In this document: piece by piece, positions 30,309 through 55,194 of the stretch
Layout of the letters: the number at the start of each line of letters is the position of its first letter
Numbering within the stretch: position 1 is the stretch's first letter
Assembly: GCF_965118125.1 (NCBI RefSeq)
Contig: NZ_OZ221287.1
Span: forward strand, 423,238-487,237
DNA length: 64,000 bases
Reading direction: 5' to 3'
Source: Pararobbsia alpina
GTDB taxonomy: Bacteria; Pseudomonadota; Gammaproteobacteria; Burkholderiales; Burkholderiaceae
Translations under genes and position numbers: made by a program
The notes under the pieces: model-generated
Databases searched by the model: none
The model's input: the letters and a program-made list of their open reading frames with translations, nothing else
Told to the model about the DNA's origin: nothing

Positions 30309-30384
30309 GGGGCGTTAGCTCAGTTGGTAGAGCAGCGGACTCTTAATCCGTAGGTCGAGTGTTCGAGTCACTCACGCCCCACCA
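30309..30384 (+). tRNA. tRNA-Lys (CTT)
   Basis: GGGGCGTTAGCTCAGTTGGTAGAGCAGCGGACTCTTAATCCGT...GAGTGTTCGAGTCACTCACGCCCCACCA. Seven-bp acceptor stem, anticodon loop CT-CTT-AA and encoded CCA. Confidence 0.85.
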
Positions 30385-30521: not shown

Positions 30522-31361
30522 CTACTGTACGTCGACTGTCGCGGCTGCCTCAACACCGTTCACCACCTCTCGCAAGAACCGGTCAAGCAAAACGACTTCT
30601 CCTTCCGGTCGCTTGTATTCGCGATCATGCTCGGCGTCGGCCAACATGCTCTCGATCAAAGCGTGGATCGCCGGACGGCGCGGTCCGTATTCGCCTTCCG
30701 TCGCTTGCATCTTCAACGCGAGCAATGCGTCGACTTCCGCGAGCAGTTCAGGATCGTGGACGGTTGCCGCGACCAGATCCGCGAATCGCATCGGCGGCAT
30801 GCCCAGCCCGGCATCGATCCAGCGAACGGCCAGCAAAGGCCGTAGAACGTACAGATACTTCTTGTACCGGACGGTCTCGTCCTTCAAATAGCCGCGGAAG
30901 TTCTTTTTCGCCATCGACAGGTAGTGGTGACGACCTCTCAGCGGAGAAAAGAATGCCGTCGCGAGTTCGCGCAAGCGAGGCGCCCACGACGCATCTTCCC
31001 GATACGTCACCGGCGAATCGAGCCACTCGAGCAACGTCGGGTTCGATCGATGCAGCAGCTGAAGCGCCTTTCGTAGCTCCCAGCCGCTGACGTCGAGCAC
31101 GTCGTCGATCGGCCGCTCGATCACGTCGCGTTGAGGTTCGACACGCAAGTACCAATCCCGCCGATGGACATAGACGAACCGCACGTCATAGTCGCTATCC
31201 GGCGACGCAAAGCCCCATCCGCGACTCCCCGATTCGCAAGCGAACAACACCCGAACATCGTGTTGCCGCTCGACGGTCCTGAGTTCCTCCATCACACGTT
31301 CACGCACAGCGGGATCGATCGGGTGCGCACTGCGCACCGTCGTCCGTTCTTCCCGTTTCAT
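30522..31361 (-). CDS. Pol-beta-superfamily nucleotidyltransferase (COG3541-like)
   Basis: hG[GS]...D.D NTase signature VLFACESGSRGWGFASPDSDYDVRFVY. 279 aa, last gene of the operon driven by the sigma54 promoter at 33093-33108. Confidence 0.6.
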   Translation of the reverse strand: MKREERTTVRSAHPIDPAVRERVMEELRTVERQHDVRVLFACESGSRGWGFASPDSDYDVRFVYVHRRDWYLRVEPQRDVIERPIDDVLDVSGWELRKALQLLHRSNPTLLEWLDSPVTYREDASWAPRLRELATAFFSPLRGRHHYLSMAKKNFRGYLKDETVRYKKYLYVLRPLLAVRWIDAGLGMPPMRFADLVAATVHDPELLAEVDALLALKMQATEGEYGPRRPAIHALIESMLADAEHDREYKRPEGEVVLLDRFLREVVNGVEAAATVDVQ

Positions 31362-31430
31362 TTCAAACTCCCCGATGCAATCAGCCGGCGGTGCAATGAT
31401 TGAATTGCAACCGCCGGCACAACCTGTTTC

Positions 31431-32570
31431 CTACGTCGGCTTGATGCTCACTAGACCGTTCAGCACCTGGTCGAGTCCCCCGAACACCGAAATGCGATCG
31501 ATACGCTCCGCAATACGTTCAAGGGTTTCGAGCTCCTTGAGTCGAAGCGCGGTCGGGTTTTCTTCCATGACCTTGGCAGTGTTCAGCAGAGAGCGCGTCG
31601 CCGCAGTCTCTTCGCGGCGGCGGATCACATTGGCCTGAGCCGCTTTCTCCGCCTCCACAACCTGCGCAAGGATCGTCTTCATGTCACCCGGCAGCGTGAT
31701 GTCCTTCACACCGACACTGCGCACGTCCACACCGGTGCCCTCCATACGGGCTCGCACCTGTTCGATCACGCTTTCGTCGATGACCTGCTTGTTCTCGAGC
31801 AGTTCGTCGAGCGAACGCGTTCCCACGGCCGAGCGCAGCGCGAACTGCAACTCGCGATAGAGATGATCGACCGGTTTTTGCAGCTGTCCGAATGCGCGCA
31901 GTACATCGACGTAGCTCCAGCTCGCCGCCAGCGTGAGGCGCAGCGTGACCTTGTCGCGGGTCAGAATCTCCTGTCCCGATACTTCGAGCGCCTGCAGGCG
32001 CTTATCGACCAGATCCACCGACACGTCGCGCCCATAACGCCAGAAGCCCGACACGCCCGGTTCGAGCAAGCGCTCCACCTTGCCGTCGACCTTGAGCACA
32101 CCGACGTTGTAGGCCGGCACGTGCGCAAGCAGCACACCCGCAAGCCCAGTTGTCGCCCGAGTGCGCAGCGCCGGCAGTTGCAGTTGCGTCACCAGATCCT
32201 GCGGCAGCGCAAATCCGGCGCGCAGGTCGATCGTCTCGAGACGATGCGCGATTTGCCCTTGCCAGTACAGGCGGCGCGTGCCGGGCGCGAGCACCTCAAC
32301 GAGCATGTCGTTCTCGTAACGCAGCCCGACCTGGGTGTCGGCCAGATCCATCGGCACAAAGTAGCGCGACACGACGTCCGTCGCCGCGCAACGCAGATAC
32401 TCGCCCAGCGACGCATCAGCGAGCGGCTCGTCGAGCTGGCACGTCTTGACGGTGAGCCGACCAAACGGATCGAAGGCACGGAACACACCCGGTTCGAGCA
32501 CCTTCACGAAGTCACCCTCGCTCATCAGCAGGGCGCGCTCGTTCTTCTTCACTACAACGCGGTTCCACAT
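31431..32570 (-). CDS. SPFH/band-7 (slipin/stomatin-like) domain protein with a roughly 150-aa N-terminal domain of unknown function
   Basis: Start trimmed to MWNRVVVKKNERALL at 32570. The central SPFH domain and the C-terminal coiled-coil/Ala-rich segment (AQVVEAEKAAQANVIRRREETAATR) are typical of band-7 proteins. Confidence 0.7.
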   Translation of the reverse strand: MWNRVVVKKNERALLMSEGDFVKVLEPGVFRAFDPFGRLTVKTCQLDEPLADASLGEYLRCAATDVVSRYFVPMDLADTQVGLRYENDMLVEVLAPGTRRLYWQGQIAHRLETIDLRAGFALPQDLVTQLQLPALRTRATTGLAGVLLAHVPAYNVGVLKVDGKVERLLEPGVSGFWRYGRDVSVDLVDKRLQALEVSGQEILTRDKVTLRLTLAASWSYVDVLRAFGQLQKPVDHLYRELQFALRSAVGTRSLDELLENKQVIDESVIEQVRARMEGTGVDVRSVGVKDITLPGDMKTILAQVVEAEKAAQANVIRRREETAATRSLLNTAKVMEENPTALRLKELETLERIAERIDRISVFGGLDQVLNGLVSIKPT

Positions 32571-32789
32571 GACATTGTCCTTTTTTTGTTGCCCGCCGGG
32601 CACGCGCGCCGGATGGATCGCGGAACGACGCGAACGGGTGGGTGTCGCGAAACGGCTCGCAGCCTTCGAAGCAATGCGCATGCTCTTGCATTGCCGCGTC
32701 GACTGCACGTCGTCCGCCTGCCCAGCCGGTCACGCGGGACCGAAACCGATCCGACGCGCGACGGGCCTTTCGGCCCGCGCCAGCGGTGA

Positions 32790-33082
32790 CTACCTGAATC
32801 CCCGGCGGAGACCGGGAGCGCGGGACTCGAACCCGCGAGCCGTCAGCCGAAGCCGTTGGCATTACCTTTCCATTTCTTGCTTGGTCAGTGCACCGGGAAT
32901 CGAACCCGGATGACGTCGCCAGACGCACTACGATTTGCCTTAGTACCTGCGGGCGGCATGCGCAGCCACGACGCTCCCGGTTCCTCGCATGCAACGTCAG
33001 TCGCCGCGGGTTTCGGGTTCGGTGTCAGCGCACCAGCAAGGCTTTGTGAACCTTGGCTCGTGGGCCTGCAGGACATCCGGCG
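32790..33082 (-). ncRNA. Candidate structured ncRNA with two tRNA-like modules (Y-RNA-like or tRNA-mimic), transcribed from the sigma54 promoter
   Basis: Module A (plus coordinates 32882-32930, read on the minus strand) is UAGUGCG-14 nt-CCGGG-UUCGAUU-CCCGG-UGCACUG-A-CCA. This is an acceptor-stem plus T-arm minihelix with a canonical T-loop and a 3'-terminal ACCA. Module B (about 32793-32870) is GCGGG-UUCGAGU-CCCGC followed by the hairpin CCCGG-ucuccg-CCGGG. The 700-bp intergenic space is unusually large for this genome. Confidence 0.3.
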
Positions 33083-33092
33083 GTTTCCTTAT

Positions 33093-33108
33093 TGCGAGGA
33101 CCGTGCCA
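33093..33108 (-). promoter_or_regulatory. Sigma54 (RpoN) -24/-12 promoter driving the ncRNA-SPFH-NTase operon, divergent from rtcR
   Basis: The minus strand reads CTGGCACGGTCCTCGCA, against the consensus TGGCACG-N4-TTGCW. The GG and GC dinucleotides are correctly spaced and there is one mismatch in the -12 box. It sits 160 bp from the rtcR start, leaving room for activator sites. Confidence 0.5.
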
Positions 33109-33269
33109 GCGCGGCGTCGATTGCGCGGGGAAGCGGCGCAATCCCTTGCCAGGCTTGGCTCGAGGCAACGAGGCACGTTGACAGGGCCTTGACCGAGGGT
33201 GCGCATGACGGTGTGAGGTATCCTCAAATTCTGATACGCTGATATCGCACCCGATATTTGTAGATAAAC

Positions 33270-34865
33270 ATGCGAAAGACCGTTGCGATTGGTTTTCTCG
33301 GCACTGTGCTCGACCTGGGACGGCGCGCGCGTCGATGGCAAAAGTGGCGCCCTACGGTCAGTCTGTGTACCCAGCCCGACATGCCGGTCGACCGGCTCGA
33401 GTTGCTTTACCCGCCGGACTACGACCGATTGGCCAATCGCGTTCGCGAGGACATCGTTGAGTTGTCACCACGCACCGAGGTGCGGCTGACGCCGGTCGAA
33501 ATCGGTAACCCGTGGGATTTCGAAGAGGTGTACGCGACGCTGCACGATTTCGCTCGCGGCTACGCTTTCGACGTGGACGCGGAGGACTACCTCGTCCACA
33601 TCACCACGGGCACTCACGTCGCGCAGATCTGCTGGTTTTTGCTCGCCGAGGCCCGCTACCTGCCTGCGCGGCTCGTGCAGACCTCACCACCCGAGCATTC
33701 GGACGACGGTCCGAAAGGCCCAGGCGAGATATCGGTCATCGATCTCGATCTGTCACGATACGACCGCATTGCACAACGATTCACGCGCGAACGCGACGAG
33801 ACCGTTTCCTTCCTGAAAGCAGGCATTGCGACGCGCAATGCCCGGTTCAACGCCTTGATCGAGCAGCTCGAACGCGTCGCCGTGCGATCGCGGGCGCCGA
33901 TGCTGCTGGTCGGGCCGACCGGAGCGGGCAAATCGTTTCTTGCAAAGCGCATCTACGAACTCAAGCACGCGCGACACAAGCTCGCTGGGCCCTTCGTTGA
34001 AATCAACTGTGCGACGCTGCGTGGCGATGCGGCCATGTCGACGTTGTTCGGCCATGTCAAAGGCGCTTTCACAGGAGCACAGAGTGCGCGGGCCGGCCTG
34101 CTTCGCGCTGCCGACGCAGGGCTGCTCTTCCTCGATGAAATCGGCGAACTGGGCCTCGACGAGCAAGCGATGTTGCTCAAGGCCATCGAAGAGAAGCGCT
34201 TTTTGCCGGTCGGCGCCGACATCGAAGCGACAAGCGATTTCCAGTTGATCGCCGGCACGCATCGCGATTTGCAGCGCATGGTGAGTGCGGGAGCGTTCCG
34301 GGAGGACCTCTATGCGCGTATCAATTTGTGGACCTACGACTTGCCGGGCCTCGCTGATCGTCGCGAAGATATTGAACCGAATCTTGACTATGAGCTCGAT
34401 CGGTTCGTCGAAGCCAATGGCGAACGCGTTCGATTCAATGTGGAAGCCAAACGGCGCTATCTGGATTTTGCGACGTCGACTCACGCGTTGTGGCCGGGCA
34501 ATTTCCGCGAGTTATCCGCATCTGTTACGCGGATGGCCACGTTGTCGGATGCGGGTCGCATTACCGAAGCCAACGCCGTCGAAGAGGTCACGCGCTTGCG
34601 ACGTTCGTGGCGGTCCGGCGATACGGAGTCGAGTCGCGTCGCTGTGCTGCTGGGCGAGCGCGCCGCCGAAATCGACTTGTTCGACCGGATGCAGCTCGAA
34701 CAGGTGCTGCGTGTCTGCGCAGCGGCGACAAGCATTTCCGAAGCCGGACGCGCCTTGTTCGCGGTGTCACGTGCGAACAAGAAGCAGCCGAACGATGCAG
34801 ACCGGCTGCGCAAGTATCTCGCGCGCTTCGGCGTCGAATGGGACAGCATCGCCTCGCTGCGCTGA
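33270..34865 (+). CDS. rtcR: Sigma54-dependent transcriptional activator RtcR (CARF-like N-domain, AAA+, HTH)
   Basis: Conserved RtcR-type N-terminal motifs MRKTV..GF.GT.LD....RW.KWRPT and NPWDFEEVYA.LHDFARGY......EDYL.HITTGTHVAQICWFLLAEARYLPARL..SPP. AAA+ Walker A GPTGAGKSF, the GAFTGA sigma54-contact motif, and the C-terminal NDADRLRKYLARFG tail. Confidence 0.9.
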   Translation: MRKTVAIGFLGTVLDLGRRARRWQKWRPTVSLCTQPDMPVDRLELLYPPDYDRLANRVREDIVELSPRTEVRLTPVEIGNPWDFEEVYATLHDFARGYAFDVDAEDYLVHITTGTHVAQICWFLLAEARYLPARLVQTSPPEHSDDGPKGPGEISVIDLDLSRYDRIAQRFTRERDETVSFLKAGIATRNARFNALIEQLERVAVRSRAPMLLVGPTGAGKSFLAKRIYELKHARHKLAGPFVEINCATLRGDAAMSTLFGHVKGAFTGAQSARAGLLRAADAGLLFLDEIGELGLDEQAMLLKAIEEKRFLPVGADIEATSDFQLIAGTHRDLQRMVSAGAFREDLYARINLWTYDLPGLADRREDIEPNLDYELDRFVEANGERVRFNVEAKRRYLDFATSTHALWPGNFRELSASVTRMATLSDAGRITEANAVEEVTRLRRSWRSGDTESSRVAVLLGERAAEIDLFDRMQLEQVLRVCAAATSISEAGRALFAVSRANKKQPNDADRLRKYLARFGVEWDSIASLR

Positions 34866-54773: not shown

Positions 54774-55194
54774 GCCGGAGTGCCGGAAAGCGACGCAACA
54801 TCGTCCCGACACCGTCTCGCTTGCGCTCACTGCCAGGTCGTCATTGAGCGCAGGCAAAAAAATAGCCCGCGTAGTCAAGCTACGGCGGGCTAAATCCATA
54901 TCGGAGGACATGGAGGAGACGGGTTCAATGTACCGGGTCTGATTTTGCGCCGCAACAAGAAAAAATTAAGCGCTTGACCCCTTGTACGGGTAAACGTGGG
55001 CCTGGCACGCTCGATGCCCTGTCTGGCATGGCTCTGCAAGCCTTACGTGACAAGGCTCTGCCGTAAGCTGACAGAGCGTAATCGTTTGCGCAAACCCCTA
55101 TTTTGCCCAATCCGAGAGACTCCTCTAGCCTCTGATCGGAAAAAATGGTGTGGTGCACATACGACTCATCTGTCGCGCGCGTAACCGGCTCGCG

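Follow-up and report, generated by a model that had tools for sequence, protein, structure and literature searches.

RtcB/RtcA operons, which rank with the commonest RNA-repair systems of bacteria, come with accessory parts: Band-7, RlaP, and non-coding RNAs. One such RNA, YrlA, is a tRNA mimic of ~114 nt in RtcR-controlled rsr-yrlBA-rtcBA operons with Rsr, where it is often tandem; its tRNA elements are permuted (T-arm, then hairpin, then D-arm), and it is closed by a terminal stem that Chen et al. (2014) are said to have identified as the Rsr-binding site. Another is b7a-tRNA, a tRNA-resembling non-coding RNA that Burroughs and Aravind 2016 (PMC5062991, doi 10.1093/nar/gkw722) are reported to have predicted in RNA-repair operons, beside RtcB and a gene for a Band-7/SPFH protein; it was proposed to be to the Band-7 scaffold what Y RNA is to Ro, its cognate RNA. 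A 2018 preprint treats b7a-tRNA as without experimental validation; the literature searched yielded no later experimental report, and the name was found solely in that preprint. Among the proteins of these operons, RtcR is activated by damaged tRNA (PMC7790460, PMC10159003), and RlaP is reported to add 1–2 nucleotides to RNA 3′-OH ends with a preference for the 5′ half of nicked tRNA (bioRxiv 10.64898/2025.12.29.696909).

We analyzed a window, the whole 64-kb stretch of DNA presented here, around an RtcR-divergent leader on its minus strand. Sequence comparison shows that this leader holds a conserved and widespread structured RNA of ~340 nt (33084-32744, minus strand), with its start at the RtcR/sigma-54 promoter; the structured leader continues past ~32744 to just before the Band-7 start codon. 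The core feature is very probably a member of the Band-7-associated tRNA-like RNA family, the b7a-tRNA of Burroughs and Aravind 2016. This family identity, joined to a mechanism in which the RNA is the partner of the Band-7 protein, is the best overall explanation, and we put its probability at roughly 60%. The genes and promoter of the locus are as follows.

33270-34865, plus strand: RtcR gene with a Sigma54_activat domain, divergent from the leader
33093-33108, minus strand: sigma-54-type promoter TGGCACGGTCCTCGCA (TGGCAC-N5-TCGCA), a pattern match with 1 mismatch, divergent from rtcR
31431-32570, minus strand: Band-7/SPFH (slipin/stomatin-like) gene, Pfam Band_7 E = 3e-27, directly downstream of the RNA
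30522-31361, minus strand: RlaP nucleotidyltransferase gene, Pfam RlaP (PF10127) E = 8.5e-98, after Band-7

The promoter's TGGCAC-N5-TCGC element is also aligned in beta- and gammaproteobacterial relatives, and transcription is predicted to start from it at ~33082-33084, the upper boundary of the feature in the earlier note. As described for b7a-tRNA, the RNA lies next to a Band-7 gene of an RNA-repair locus, with Band_7 directly downstream, RlaP next, and RtcR divergent. The RNA ligase RtcB is absent: relatives carry rtcB between Band-7 and RlaP (Band7-RtcB-RlaP order in L082), and tblastn gave no RtcB match anywhere in the 64-kb window.

Membership of the window RNA was assessed with models from which its own sequence was left out. 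The whole-RNA sequence profile (34 relatives) matches 33084-32744(-) over profile positions 8-321 of 324 (nhmmer, E = 5.2e-24), and a profile from non-Burkholderia sequences only still matches the window (nhmmer, E = 1.2e-8); the window's two real tRNAs match the whole-RNA profile in its module-B part only, at 31-32 bits. Covariance model R1, built from 20 relatives, matches 32811-32930(-) with 50.9 bits (E = 1.4e-10), and the window copy is the lowest-scoring family member (49-51 bits). Ordinary tRNAs score 52-55 bits with R1 and phage tRNA arrays up to 64, a range in which R1 alone cannot tell tandem tRNAs from weak family members. Because the window's R1 score does not exceed that of ordinary tRNAs, its membership rests on the full-length profile match together with synteny.

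R1 gives 64-125 bits for 52 relatives, found in metagenomes and in genomes of Burkholderia, Paraburkholderia, Cupriavidus-like bacteria, Rhodocyclaceae, Gallionellaceae, Chitinibacter/Jeongeupia, and Pseudomonas. Across more than 50 related loci the architecture is a 5′ two-hairpin domain, module A, module B, a small hairpin, and GCAGUACCC, which is nearly invariant. Compared with b7a-tRNA as described second-hand, the window RNA shares its genomic position. The resemblance to an authentic tRNA is strong in relatives (Rfam tRNA 36-60 bits; 18-19/19 pairs in module B); in the window, module A is a minihelix (12/12 pairs), module B keeps 13/19 pairs, and neither Rfam tRNA nor ARAGORN calls the RNA. 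Here the RNA is resolved as two tandem modules within a larger RNA (5′ domain, hairpin 4, GCAGUACCC, 3′ domain), which may go beyond the original description, and the window copy differs in its minihelix module A, eroded module B, and lack of RtcB. The comparison thereby gives a b7a-tRNA-type RNA a testable anatomy: boundaries, two modules, a conserved 5′ domain, and a near-invariant 9-mer.

That the leader contains two tRNA-derived modules, as the earlier note had proposed from the letters, is confirmed by the sequence and by the relatives. All module features lie on the minus strand.

32882-32930, minus strand: module A, acceptor/T-arm minihelix with A-CCA tail, 12/12 pairs formed (alignment to R1)
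32930-32924, minus strand: module A acceptor 5′ strand UAGUGCG (read from sequence)
32923-32910, minus strand: module A linker UCUGGCGACGUCAU, 14 nt (read from sequence)
32909-32893, minus strand: module A T-arm CCGGG-UUCGAUU-CCCGG (read from sequence)
32892-32886, minus strand: module A acceptor 3′ strand UGCACUG (read from sequence)
32885 and 32884-32882, minus strand: module A A and CCA (read from sequence)
32815-32880, minus strand: module B, eroded tRNA-like cloverleaf with residual acceptor (alignment to R1)
32876-32859, minus strand: module B D-like region (alignment to R1)
32858-32840, minus strand: module B UUCG-capped anticodon-like stem (alignment to R1)
32836-32820, minus strand: module B T-arm GCGGG-UUCGAGU-CCCGC, intact (alignment to R1)

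Module A has the layout first read for it, including a 7-pair acceptor-like stem of 5 Watson-Crick and 2 G-U pairs on the minus strand. Among the 52 relatives it behaves as a conserved acceptor/T-arm minihelix, with compensatory changes in 7/7 acceptor pairs and 4/5 T-stem pairs, and the window adds lineage-specific compensatory changes of its own (UAGUGC/GCACUG). RNAfold returned the acceptor and T-arm fold for module A, but at an ordinary energy (z = −0.41), so that comparative evidence, and not thermodynamics alone, separates the module from chance. Over modules A and B together, 95.3% of cells in the 52 relatives are paired and 22 of 31 pairs change on both sides (239 cells); 0/500 shuffles reached as high a value, and slid controls gave 36-49%. 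Module B likewise stands as claimed, its T-arm 73 nt after that of module A and flanked by hairpins (32858-32840 before, 32816-32800 after). Its pairing is where the window departs: 13/19 pairs form in L083, a near-identical twin of the window, 15 in L081, and 18-19 in 50 further family members, those that match at 63.9 bits or more. The contrast drawn at the outset between compensatory change and random drift therefore divides by module, with maintained structure for module A and drift for module B in the window lineage (13/19 pairs in the window itself).

In relatives, module B is a cloverleaf with a 4-6-bp acceptor, no conserved anticodon, and no CCA; its acceptor and anticodon stems covary (5/5 pairs each), its D-stem and T-stem are nearly invariant, and the D-arm with GG and the T-arm are invariant or nearly so. 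In Pseudomonas and the alpha-type loci, module A forms a complete tRNA-like cloverleaf (L058 and L066 score 56-60 bits with Rfam tRNA; also called by ARAGORN). Burkholderia has it as a minihelix, and many lineages have lost its D and anticodon arms. The two modules thus evolve differently: A is reducible to an acceptor/T minihelix, and B keeps the tRNA elbow without ends or anticodon. Rfam (36-60 bits) and ARAGORN call the relatives' modules tRNA, with anticodons that vary by locus or are 2-nt readings of tetraloops, so the modules are tRNA-shaped and not decoders. At the anticodon-like position, Burkholderia and several Pseudomonas have stable tetraloops (UUCG, GCAA, GAAA), and other members have 7-nt loops of unconserved sequence. 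Such loops would suit a nuclease-resistant tRNA decoy, in which tRNA-shaped modules without a cleavable anticodon loop soak up tRNA-targeting ribotoxins; in the RtcR systems studied, tRNA damage switches the operon on, and the same work raises the decoy idea for YrlA (PMC7790460). We consider this improbable here, given that normal 7-nt loops are kept in several members and that the strict Band-7 linkage, the conserved 5′ domain, and the GCAGUACCC motif would be left unexplained.

Rfam (gathering score; E ≤ 10) and ARAGORN, run on the region, returned only a weak mascRNA-like match (16.2 bits, E = 3.3, far below the gathering score), so the region belongs to no curated family. The tmRNA tRNA-like domain, mascRNA, and viral 3′ tRNA-like structures combine an acceptor/T-arm coaxial stack with CCA, as module A does, but CCA is not conserved across the Band-7-associated family. 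A tmRNA was rejected: ARAGORN finds none, Rfam gives no tmRNA match at E ≤ 10, and there is no tag reading frame. An authentic tRNA was rejected as well, the only ARAGORN and Rfam calls being tRNA-Phe and tRNA-Lys elsewhere in the window. The family shares with authentic tRNAs the acceptor, D, anticodon, and T arms, the canonical T-loop, and the D-loop GG; it differs in having no conserved anticodon and loops that are often tetraloops (UUCG in window module B).

Upstream of module A lies the 5′ domain.

33064-33081, minus strand: P0 closing helix, 5′ strand GCCGGAUGUCCUGCAGGC, pairing with 32937-32954
33031-33062, minus strand: extended hairpin 1 (CACGAGCCAAGG-UUCACAAAG-CCUUGCUGGUG), from RNAalifold on 29 relatives
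32958-33033, minus strand: hairpin P3 (GUGCGC...GCGCAU), 90% paired, 8/9 pairs covarying
32937-32954, minus strand: P0 closing helix, 3′ strand GCCCGCAGGUACUAAGGC, partner of 33064-33081

The 5′ core is 91.3% paired, with covariation in 13/17 pairs and 0/500 shuffles as high; within it, the hairpin 1 helix is 92% paired and changes on both sides in 5/8 pairs (for example, G-C vs A-U at columns 15/39). The P0 pairs were found by hand (GCC/GGC, GU/AC, CCUGC/GCAGG, GGC/GCC), and complementarity with different sequences occurs at P0 in other lineages (GGUCGC/GCGAUC in L041, CGACCG/CGGUCG in L066). Cognate P0 duplexes compared with non-cognate ones give a mean z of −0.84 and rank best or second best in 9/31; support for this helix is moderate. 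In the alignments, a distal P3 insertion of ~37 nt is present in the window and L083 only, and the window contains a 10-nt perfect complement between 32981-32972 and 32820-32811. In this lineage, the lost module B acceptor stem may be rebuilt in trans by the 37-nt insertion. Minimum-free-energy folds of whole leaders were too noisy for use.

Three further elements follow module B.

32800-32816, minus strand: hairpin 4 (CCCGG-UCUCCGC-CGGGG) after module B; relatives have a hairpin at the same place with differing sequences, e.g., CUGUCC-GCAA-GGACAG
32785-32793, minus strand: GUAGUCACC, the window variant of the near-invariant GCAGUACCC motif, differing at 3/9 positions in columns conserved across orders
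32592-32787, minus strand: 3′ leader domain closed by helix P5 (32787-32771 with 32612-32592), ending ~20 nt before the Band-7 start codon

In the window, the cognate P5 duplex reaches −30.0 kcal/mol, and non-cognate duplexes average −21.5 (z = −1.9); the alpha-type loci, where the sequences are different, have z = −1.7 to −3.6, and the overall mean z is −0.53. A family-wide long-range helix between GGCCCRC (before hairpin 1) and GYGGGCC (after GCAGUACCC) was also tried; it is perfect in L046 and L161, with CAC/GUG vs CGC/GCG in Burkholderia, but it was rejected as a general feature (cognate vs non-cognate mean z = 0.03).

Y RNA membership, the identity first suggested for the minihelix, did not survive comparison. 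Within 32400-33400 the Rfam YrlA model (RF02553, gathering score 69 bits) has no match at E ≤ 10, nor does it reach its gathering score in any of 11 family loci; as a positive control, it scores 55-85 bits on the Y RNAs of sister Rsr loci. In those sister operons, which are without Band-7, Rsr(Ro60) and YrlA Y RNAs in tandem precede RtcB (immediately so in L056, L065, and L080), YrlA standing in place of the Band-7-associated RNA. No Rsr/Ro60 (TROVE) gene was found in the window operon, whose genes are Band_7 and RlaP. YrlA and the window RNA have the D-arm sequence GCUCA..GGUAGAGC in common, as well as the T-arm sequence GCGGGUUCGA.UCCCGC, and both occupy equivalent operon positions, but the window RNA has its tRNA elements in normal order and no conserved terminal stem. 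Because it lies in an RNA-repair operon, at the place held by Rsr/YrlA in sister operons, the window RNA may be regarded, by analogy, as a functional analogue of Y RNA in genomic context.

The specific model of the earlier note was a YrlA-type Y RNA with a long terminal stem, its ACCA minihelix acting as substrate for a nucleotidyltransferase, CCA addition, or aminoacylation. In module A the 7-bp acceptor stem is indeed perfect, the T-arm is canonical, and A-CCA is present, and RlaP does act on RNA 3′ ends (bioRxiv 10.64898/2025.12.29.696909). The terminal stem holds only in part: CCUUGCUGGU / ACCAAGCAAG are complementary in the window (duplex −12.5 kcal/mol), but relatives mostly give −1.7 to −7, and the proposed 5′ strand, CCUUGCUGGUG, is the 3′ strand of the covarying local hairpin 1. 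Nor is the encoded CCA a defining feature, since N-CCA follows module A in 11/52 non-redundant relatives and is absent in Pseudomonas, including the species with studied RlaP. The tie between CCA addition and the downstream nucleotidyltransferase is not supported either, that enzyme being RlaP (PF10127), with the reported activity and preference given above. With no YrlA match, no Rsr, and a negative family-wide closing-helix test (mean z = 0.03), sequence comparison largely refutes this model, and we leave it a very small probability.

By the same comparisons, the window copy is the most divergent of the family. Since rtcB is gone, module A and both T-arms are kept, and the acceptor, D, and anticodon stems of module B have decayed, we read it as a reduced, possibly partly non-functional version. 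Decaying tRNA pseudogenes without a function of their own would look similar in several respects—module B minus 6/19 pairs, the motif altered at 3/9 positions, the P3 insertion, the lost rtcB, the family's lowest R1 score—but compensatory changes across orders of bacteria exclude this for the family, and the window still has module A, both T-arms, hairpin 1, P3, and the promoter in intact form. Decay of the window copy is at most partial, and a functionless remnant is highly improbable. What this adds for the window is modest, namely a divergent and partly decayed representative of an already predicted class.

Gene context across the family singles out one neighbor. Band-7 lies downstream of the RNA, on the same strand, in every family locus. 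This adjacency occurs in the beta/gamma types, which have a sigma-54 promoter, and behind arrays of ordinary tRNA genes that lack one, and also without detected RtcB or RlaP in the 1.5-12 kb available downstream (alpha-type and L115-type loci); in alpha-type loci the RNA directly continues the tRNA gene array. The Band-7 protein, and not RtcB, RlaP, or RtcR, is the constant partner of the RNA, which points experiments at a Band-7 ribonucleoprotein. Metagenomes were searched with the pattern T-arm + N20-50 + GCAGTRCCC, and of 120 matches only the ~25 with Band-7 downstream were used; most of the 120 were rejected as ordinary tRNA genes with a chance 9-mer, followed by integrases or unrelated genes. 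The same pattern in viral contigs identified no phage-borne member, the matches being phage tRNA arrays.

In the PDB, the Band-7 protein has sequence matches to chains of stomatin (E = 1e-17 to 1e-19), in entries that are multi-chain assemblies with 16 chains each, and no hydrophobic membrane segment was seen in it by eye. Its predicted structure is of low confidence (mean pLDDT 56, shallow alignment), and Foldseek with this low-confidence model returned stomatin, HflK/C, and prohibitin only. The model, made in search of an RNA-binding N-terminal domain, added nothing beyond the sequence match to stomatin.

We infer that the most likely role of the RNA is that of partner to the Band-7 protein. 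It would be made together with the operon, its tRNA-like modules would probably be trimmed by tRNA-processing enzymes, and it would then be the partner of a soluble Band-7/SPFH protein that forms cages. By mimicking tRNA, the RNA would enable the Band-7 particle to engage enzymes or substrates with an affinity for tRNA shape (RtcB, RlaP, damaged tRNAs), the part that Y RNA plays for the Ro60/Rsr ring. Taken as a whole, this mechanism is tentative, a serious proposal that falls somewhat short of an even bet.

The same arrangement suits a cis-acting 5′ UTR equally well, the RNA always being immediately upstream of Band-7 on the same strand. On that account the leader, attached to or processed from the Band-7 mRNA, controls mRNA stability, processing, or translation, and the modules are RNase P/RNase Z entry sites or protein-binding switches and not a free RNA cofactor. 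No intrinsic terminator was found between the RNA and Band-7 in the window; the P5-closed 3′ domain, whose complementary sequences are lineage-specific, stops 20-45 nt short of the start codon; and the alpha-type Band-7 follows tRNA genes without a recognizable promoter of its own, so that tRNA-type processing would be needed to free its mRNA. Against this, the strongest conservation falls on tRNA 3D-shape features (D-arm GG, T-arm) that a mere processing signal does not need, and sister operons have free Y RNAs at the same place. We judge the cis-acting account unlikely, and it is compatible with the RNA-partner reading.

The RNA-partner reading extends to a possible, if doubtful, particle. 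A multi-domain RNA of ~340–500 nt (5′ junction domain, two tRNA mimics, GCAGUACCC, and closed 3′ domain) and a soluble SPFH/Band-7 cage could form a Ro/Y-RNA-like or vault-like particle handling damaged tRNA, the RNA and Band-7 pair also occurring alone behind tRNA arrays.

Present-day loci form a natural "deletion series" of the RNA: the window has no RtcB and an eroded module B, Erwinia has one minihelix, and Pseudomonas has two full cloverleaves.

In the window, modules A and B lie within the first 290 nt of the leader of a Band-7/SPFH gene. The features that define the locus are the following:

33270–34865, plus strand: RtcR gene, with Pfam RtcR and Sigma54_activat matches
33108–33093, minus strand: sigma-54-type promoter TGGCACGGTCCTCGCA, divergent from rtcR
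32930–32882, minus strand: module A, UAGUGCG, 14 nt, CCGGG-UUCGAUU-CCCGG, UGCACUG-A-CCA
32836–32820, minus strand: canonical T-arm of module B, GCGGG-UUCGAGU-CCCGC, flanked by a UUCG-capped hairpin on its 5′ side and a second hairpin on its 3′ side
32570–31431, minus strand: Band-7/SPFH gene, starting about 510 nt downstream of the promoter
31384–31392 and 31410–31418: arms of a perfect 9-nt inverted repeat, GCCGGCGGT/ACCGCCGGC, inside the intergenic spacer that runs from the Band-7 stop to the start of RlaP (31362–31430)
31361–30522, minus strand: RlaP (PF10127) nucleotidyltransferase gene, next after Band-7

The sequence of both modules is exactly as the earlier note had read it. ARAGORN made no call on the leader modules, Rfam gave no match in this region of the window, and module A folds with an ordinary energy (z = −0.41); the window sequence alone is therefore compatible with chance.

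Relatives supply the structural evidence. An RlaP protein search, with one genome per species, yielded 80 loci, and a metagenome scan about 25 additional Band-7 loci. Where Band-7 is present in the RlaP-search loci, the gene order is RtcR, a leader of 345–560 nt, Band-7, RtcB, and RlaP; leaders of Band-7 loci carry recurring pairs of T-loop motifs spaced 70–75 nt apart. Leader alignments give a common order—promoter, 5′ domain, module A, module B, small hairpin, near-invariant GCAGUACCC, GC-rich 3′ domain, Band-7—that spans Burkholderia, Paraburkholderia, Rhodocyclaceae, Gallionellaceae, Chitinibacter/Jeongeupia, and Pseudomonas. A whole-RNA sequence profile built from 34 relatives, with the window left out, matches the window at 33084–32744 on the minus strand (profile positions 8–321 of 324; E = 5.2e-24), and the true tRNAs of the window match only its module-B segment.

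Across the family loci, Band-7 is the constant neighbor of the RNA. In some loci the two accompany RtcB and RlaP under RtcR/sigma-54 control; they also occur together in alpha-type metagenome loci (L084, L107, L112, L124, L145, L153, and L163), which place 2–6 ordinary tRNA genes, the 5′ domain, two full tRNA-like cloverleaves, and Band-7 in that order on one strand. These loci have no sigma-54 promoter, and neither RtcB nor RlaP was detected downstream of Band-7 in the four whose contigs extend beyond it (1.5–12 kb). The neighbors of L153 resemble TIR-domain proteins, judged from sequence without a domain scan. In L084 and L112, the last tRNA gene before the tRNA-like RNA is tRNA-Lys(CUU); the window also has a tRNA-Lys(CUU) gene (30309–30384, plus strand), convergent with the RlaP end, which may be coincidence. 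Erwinia-type leaders (L074, L079, L128, and L183) are about 150 nt shorter: The promoter, small hairpin, and motif are retained and the 5′ domain is reduced; a single acceptor/T-arm minihelix (GCGAAG ... ACGGG-UUCGACU-CCCGG-CUUCGC-ACC) replaces modules A and B, and the leader ends with GCAGUACCCC ahead of Band-7.

Module A is a complete cloverleaf in Pseudomonas and one group of metagenome loci (Rfam tRNA, 56–60 bits in L058 and L066), and module B in most relatives; their "anticodons" vary by locus, or a tetraloop takes their place. A covariance model (R1), built from 20 minihelix-type relatives with the window excluded, scored 52 relatives at 64–125 bits. In the R1 alignment, 95.3% of cells are paired and 22 of 31 pairs changed on both sides (239 cells), values reached by none of 500 shuffles. 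Fitting to the model biases this alignment toward structure; sliding the partner lowers pairing to 36–49%, and these controls, together with acceptor stems read by hand, argue that the covariation signal is real. All seven pairs of the module A acceptor stem covary, with variants UAGUGC/GCACUG in the window, AGAUGC/GCAUCU in L081, GGGCGC/GCGCCC in L005, GGGCAAU/AUUGCCC in L041, and GCGAAG/CUUCGC in Erwinia. In module B, the acceptor and anticodon stems covary at 5/5 pairs each, and the sequences of the D-stem and T-stem hardly vary. On this comparative evidence, we conclude that both modules derive from tRNA and that selection acts on their structure.

Within the 5′ domain, the region 33062–32958 forms two hairpins conserved with compensatory changes: An alignment of 29 relatives has 91.3% paired cells and 13 of 17 pairs changed on both sides, unequaled in 500 shuffles. 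Hairpin 1, the extended one, reads CACGAGCCAAGG-loop-CCUUGCUGGUG. The earlier note drew on its 3′ strand for the long terminal stem, pairing it with the stretch after module A. Only the window (−12.5 kcal/mol) and its nearest relative form that stem strongly; elsewhere it is weak. Nor did a cognate versus non-cognate energy test support a helix around both modules across the family (mean z = 0.03), so a Y-RNA-like terminal stem is absent. The same test gives moderate support (mean z = −0.84) to a putative closing helix of the 5′ domain, P0, which pairs the first ~20 nt of the transcript with the ~20 nt preceding module A through sequences that differ considerably between lineages.

YrlA-type Y RNAs do occur in sister operons without Band-7, which carry Rsr (Ro60: TROVE + vWA), 3–5 tandem YrlA RNAs, RtcB, and RlaP. 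L039, L045, L056, L065, and L080 each have three to five tandem YrlA copies upstream of RtcB (Rfam RF02553, 55–85 bits), lying between Rsr and RtcB in L056, L065, and L080. The YrlA model gave no match in the window at E ≤ 10 and none at the gathering score in 11 Band-7 loci. YrlA and the Band-7-associated RNA are alike in D-arm and T-arm sequences and operon position; YrlA, however, permutes its tRNA elements (T-arm, hairpin, D-arm) within a terminal stem, whereas the window RNA has them in normal order and twice. We therefore regard the two as different families, and the Y RNA assignment is abandoned given the silent model, the normal element order, and the missing terminal stem.

The proposed link between the module A CCA and the downstream nucleotidyltransferase fares no better. 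Among 52 non-redundant relatives, N-CCA follows module A in 11 and N-CC in 21; Pseudomonas has none. According to one report (bioRxiv 10.64898/2025.12.29.696909), RlaP extends RNA 3′-OH ends by one or two nucleotides, with a preference for the 5′ half of a nicked tRNA; a role in repairing over-trimmed tRNA ahead of ligation is proposed. We found no tie between RlaP and the CCA.

The window lineage is isolated, its closest Band-7 proteins being just 82% identical; L083, a near-identical twin from a short-read assembly, has the same arrangement with nine intergenic differences. Module A keeps 12/12 pairs in the window and module B 13/19, against 18–19/19 in 50 relatives and 15 in L081. The conserved 9-mer reads GUAGUCACC, and P3, a hairpin of the 5′ domain, has an insertion of ~37 nt. 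No RtcB was found in the 64-kb window: The exact site of the relatives' 1.2-kb rtcB gene, between Band-7 and RlaP, is the 69-nt gap 31362–31430, whose inverted repeat may be a deletion scar or an intercistronic hairpin. R1 gives its lowest member scores to the window (50.9 bits) and to L083 (49.3 bits), no higher than those of ordinary tRNAs or phage tRNA arrays. Together, the lost module B pairs, altered 9-mer, P3 insertion, missing rtcB, and lowest R1 scores indicate a reduced copy that retains the module A minihelix and both T-arms but whose module B body has drifted. Within the P3 insertion, 32972–32981 is a perfect 10-nt complement of 32811–32820, the strand after the module B T-stem and the equivalent of the 3′ half of the module B acceptor stem in relatives. 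This complement, present in the window and L083 only, may reflect chance or the rebuilding of an acceptor stem; 75 of 1000 shuffles (7.5%) hold a repeat that long somewhere in the sequence.

Position, partners, and tRNA likeness fit the predicted Band-7-associated tRNA-like class (Burroughs and Aravind, 2016), to which we assign the window RNA as a divergent member rather than a Y RNA. The earlier note's observation thus stands and its interpretation survives in part, without the Y RNA identity; novelty for the window is low to moderate, and the useful product is the family anatomy. A 2018 preprint on YrlA structure noted that some bacteria encode RtcB beside a Band-7 protein and a predicted ncRNA, which then lacked validation (bioRxiv 10.1101/312249). 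Later literature searches found no experimental work on this RNA, and a survey of the SPFH proteins in P. aeruginosa, published in 2026, notes one in the rtc locus and nothing further (PMC13086221).

The window's Band-7 protein is stomatin-like, with no obvious membrane segment. The most likely role of the RNA is as cognate partner of such a protein, assembled into a soluble SPFH ring or cage. A tRNA elbow is suggested by the conserved D-loop GG and T-loop, and a tRNA shape might allow the particle to engage damaged tRNAs or tRNA-recognizing enzymes, by analogy with Y RNA and Ro. The chief alternative is that the RNA acts in cis as the Band-7 leader: It is always upstream of and contiguous with the gene, with no terminator between them. 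P5, a putative helix of the 3′ domain, would pair 32771–32787, directly after the GCAGUACCC motif, with 32592–32612, and equivalent complementarity to a segment 20–45 nt before the Band-7 start codon recurs through lineage-specific complementary sequences in L084, L112, L124, L145, L153, L163, and L052. It would close a 3′ domain of ~170–200 nt just ahead of the ribosome-binding site, placing the motif beside that site. A tRNA-decoy role is also possible, given anticodon stems capped by tetraloops. In Anabaena, translation stress co-induces a slipin gene together with rtcB and a tRNA array (PMC10272220), which matches the theme of these loci but is no more than a lead.

Elsewhere in the window, 54857–54921 (minus strand) matches the Rfam "Betaproteobacteria toxic small RNA" family (RF02278) at 50.5 bits, against a gathering score of 50.
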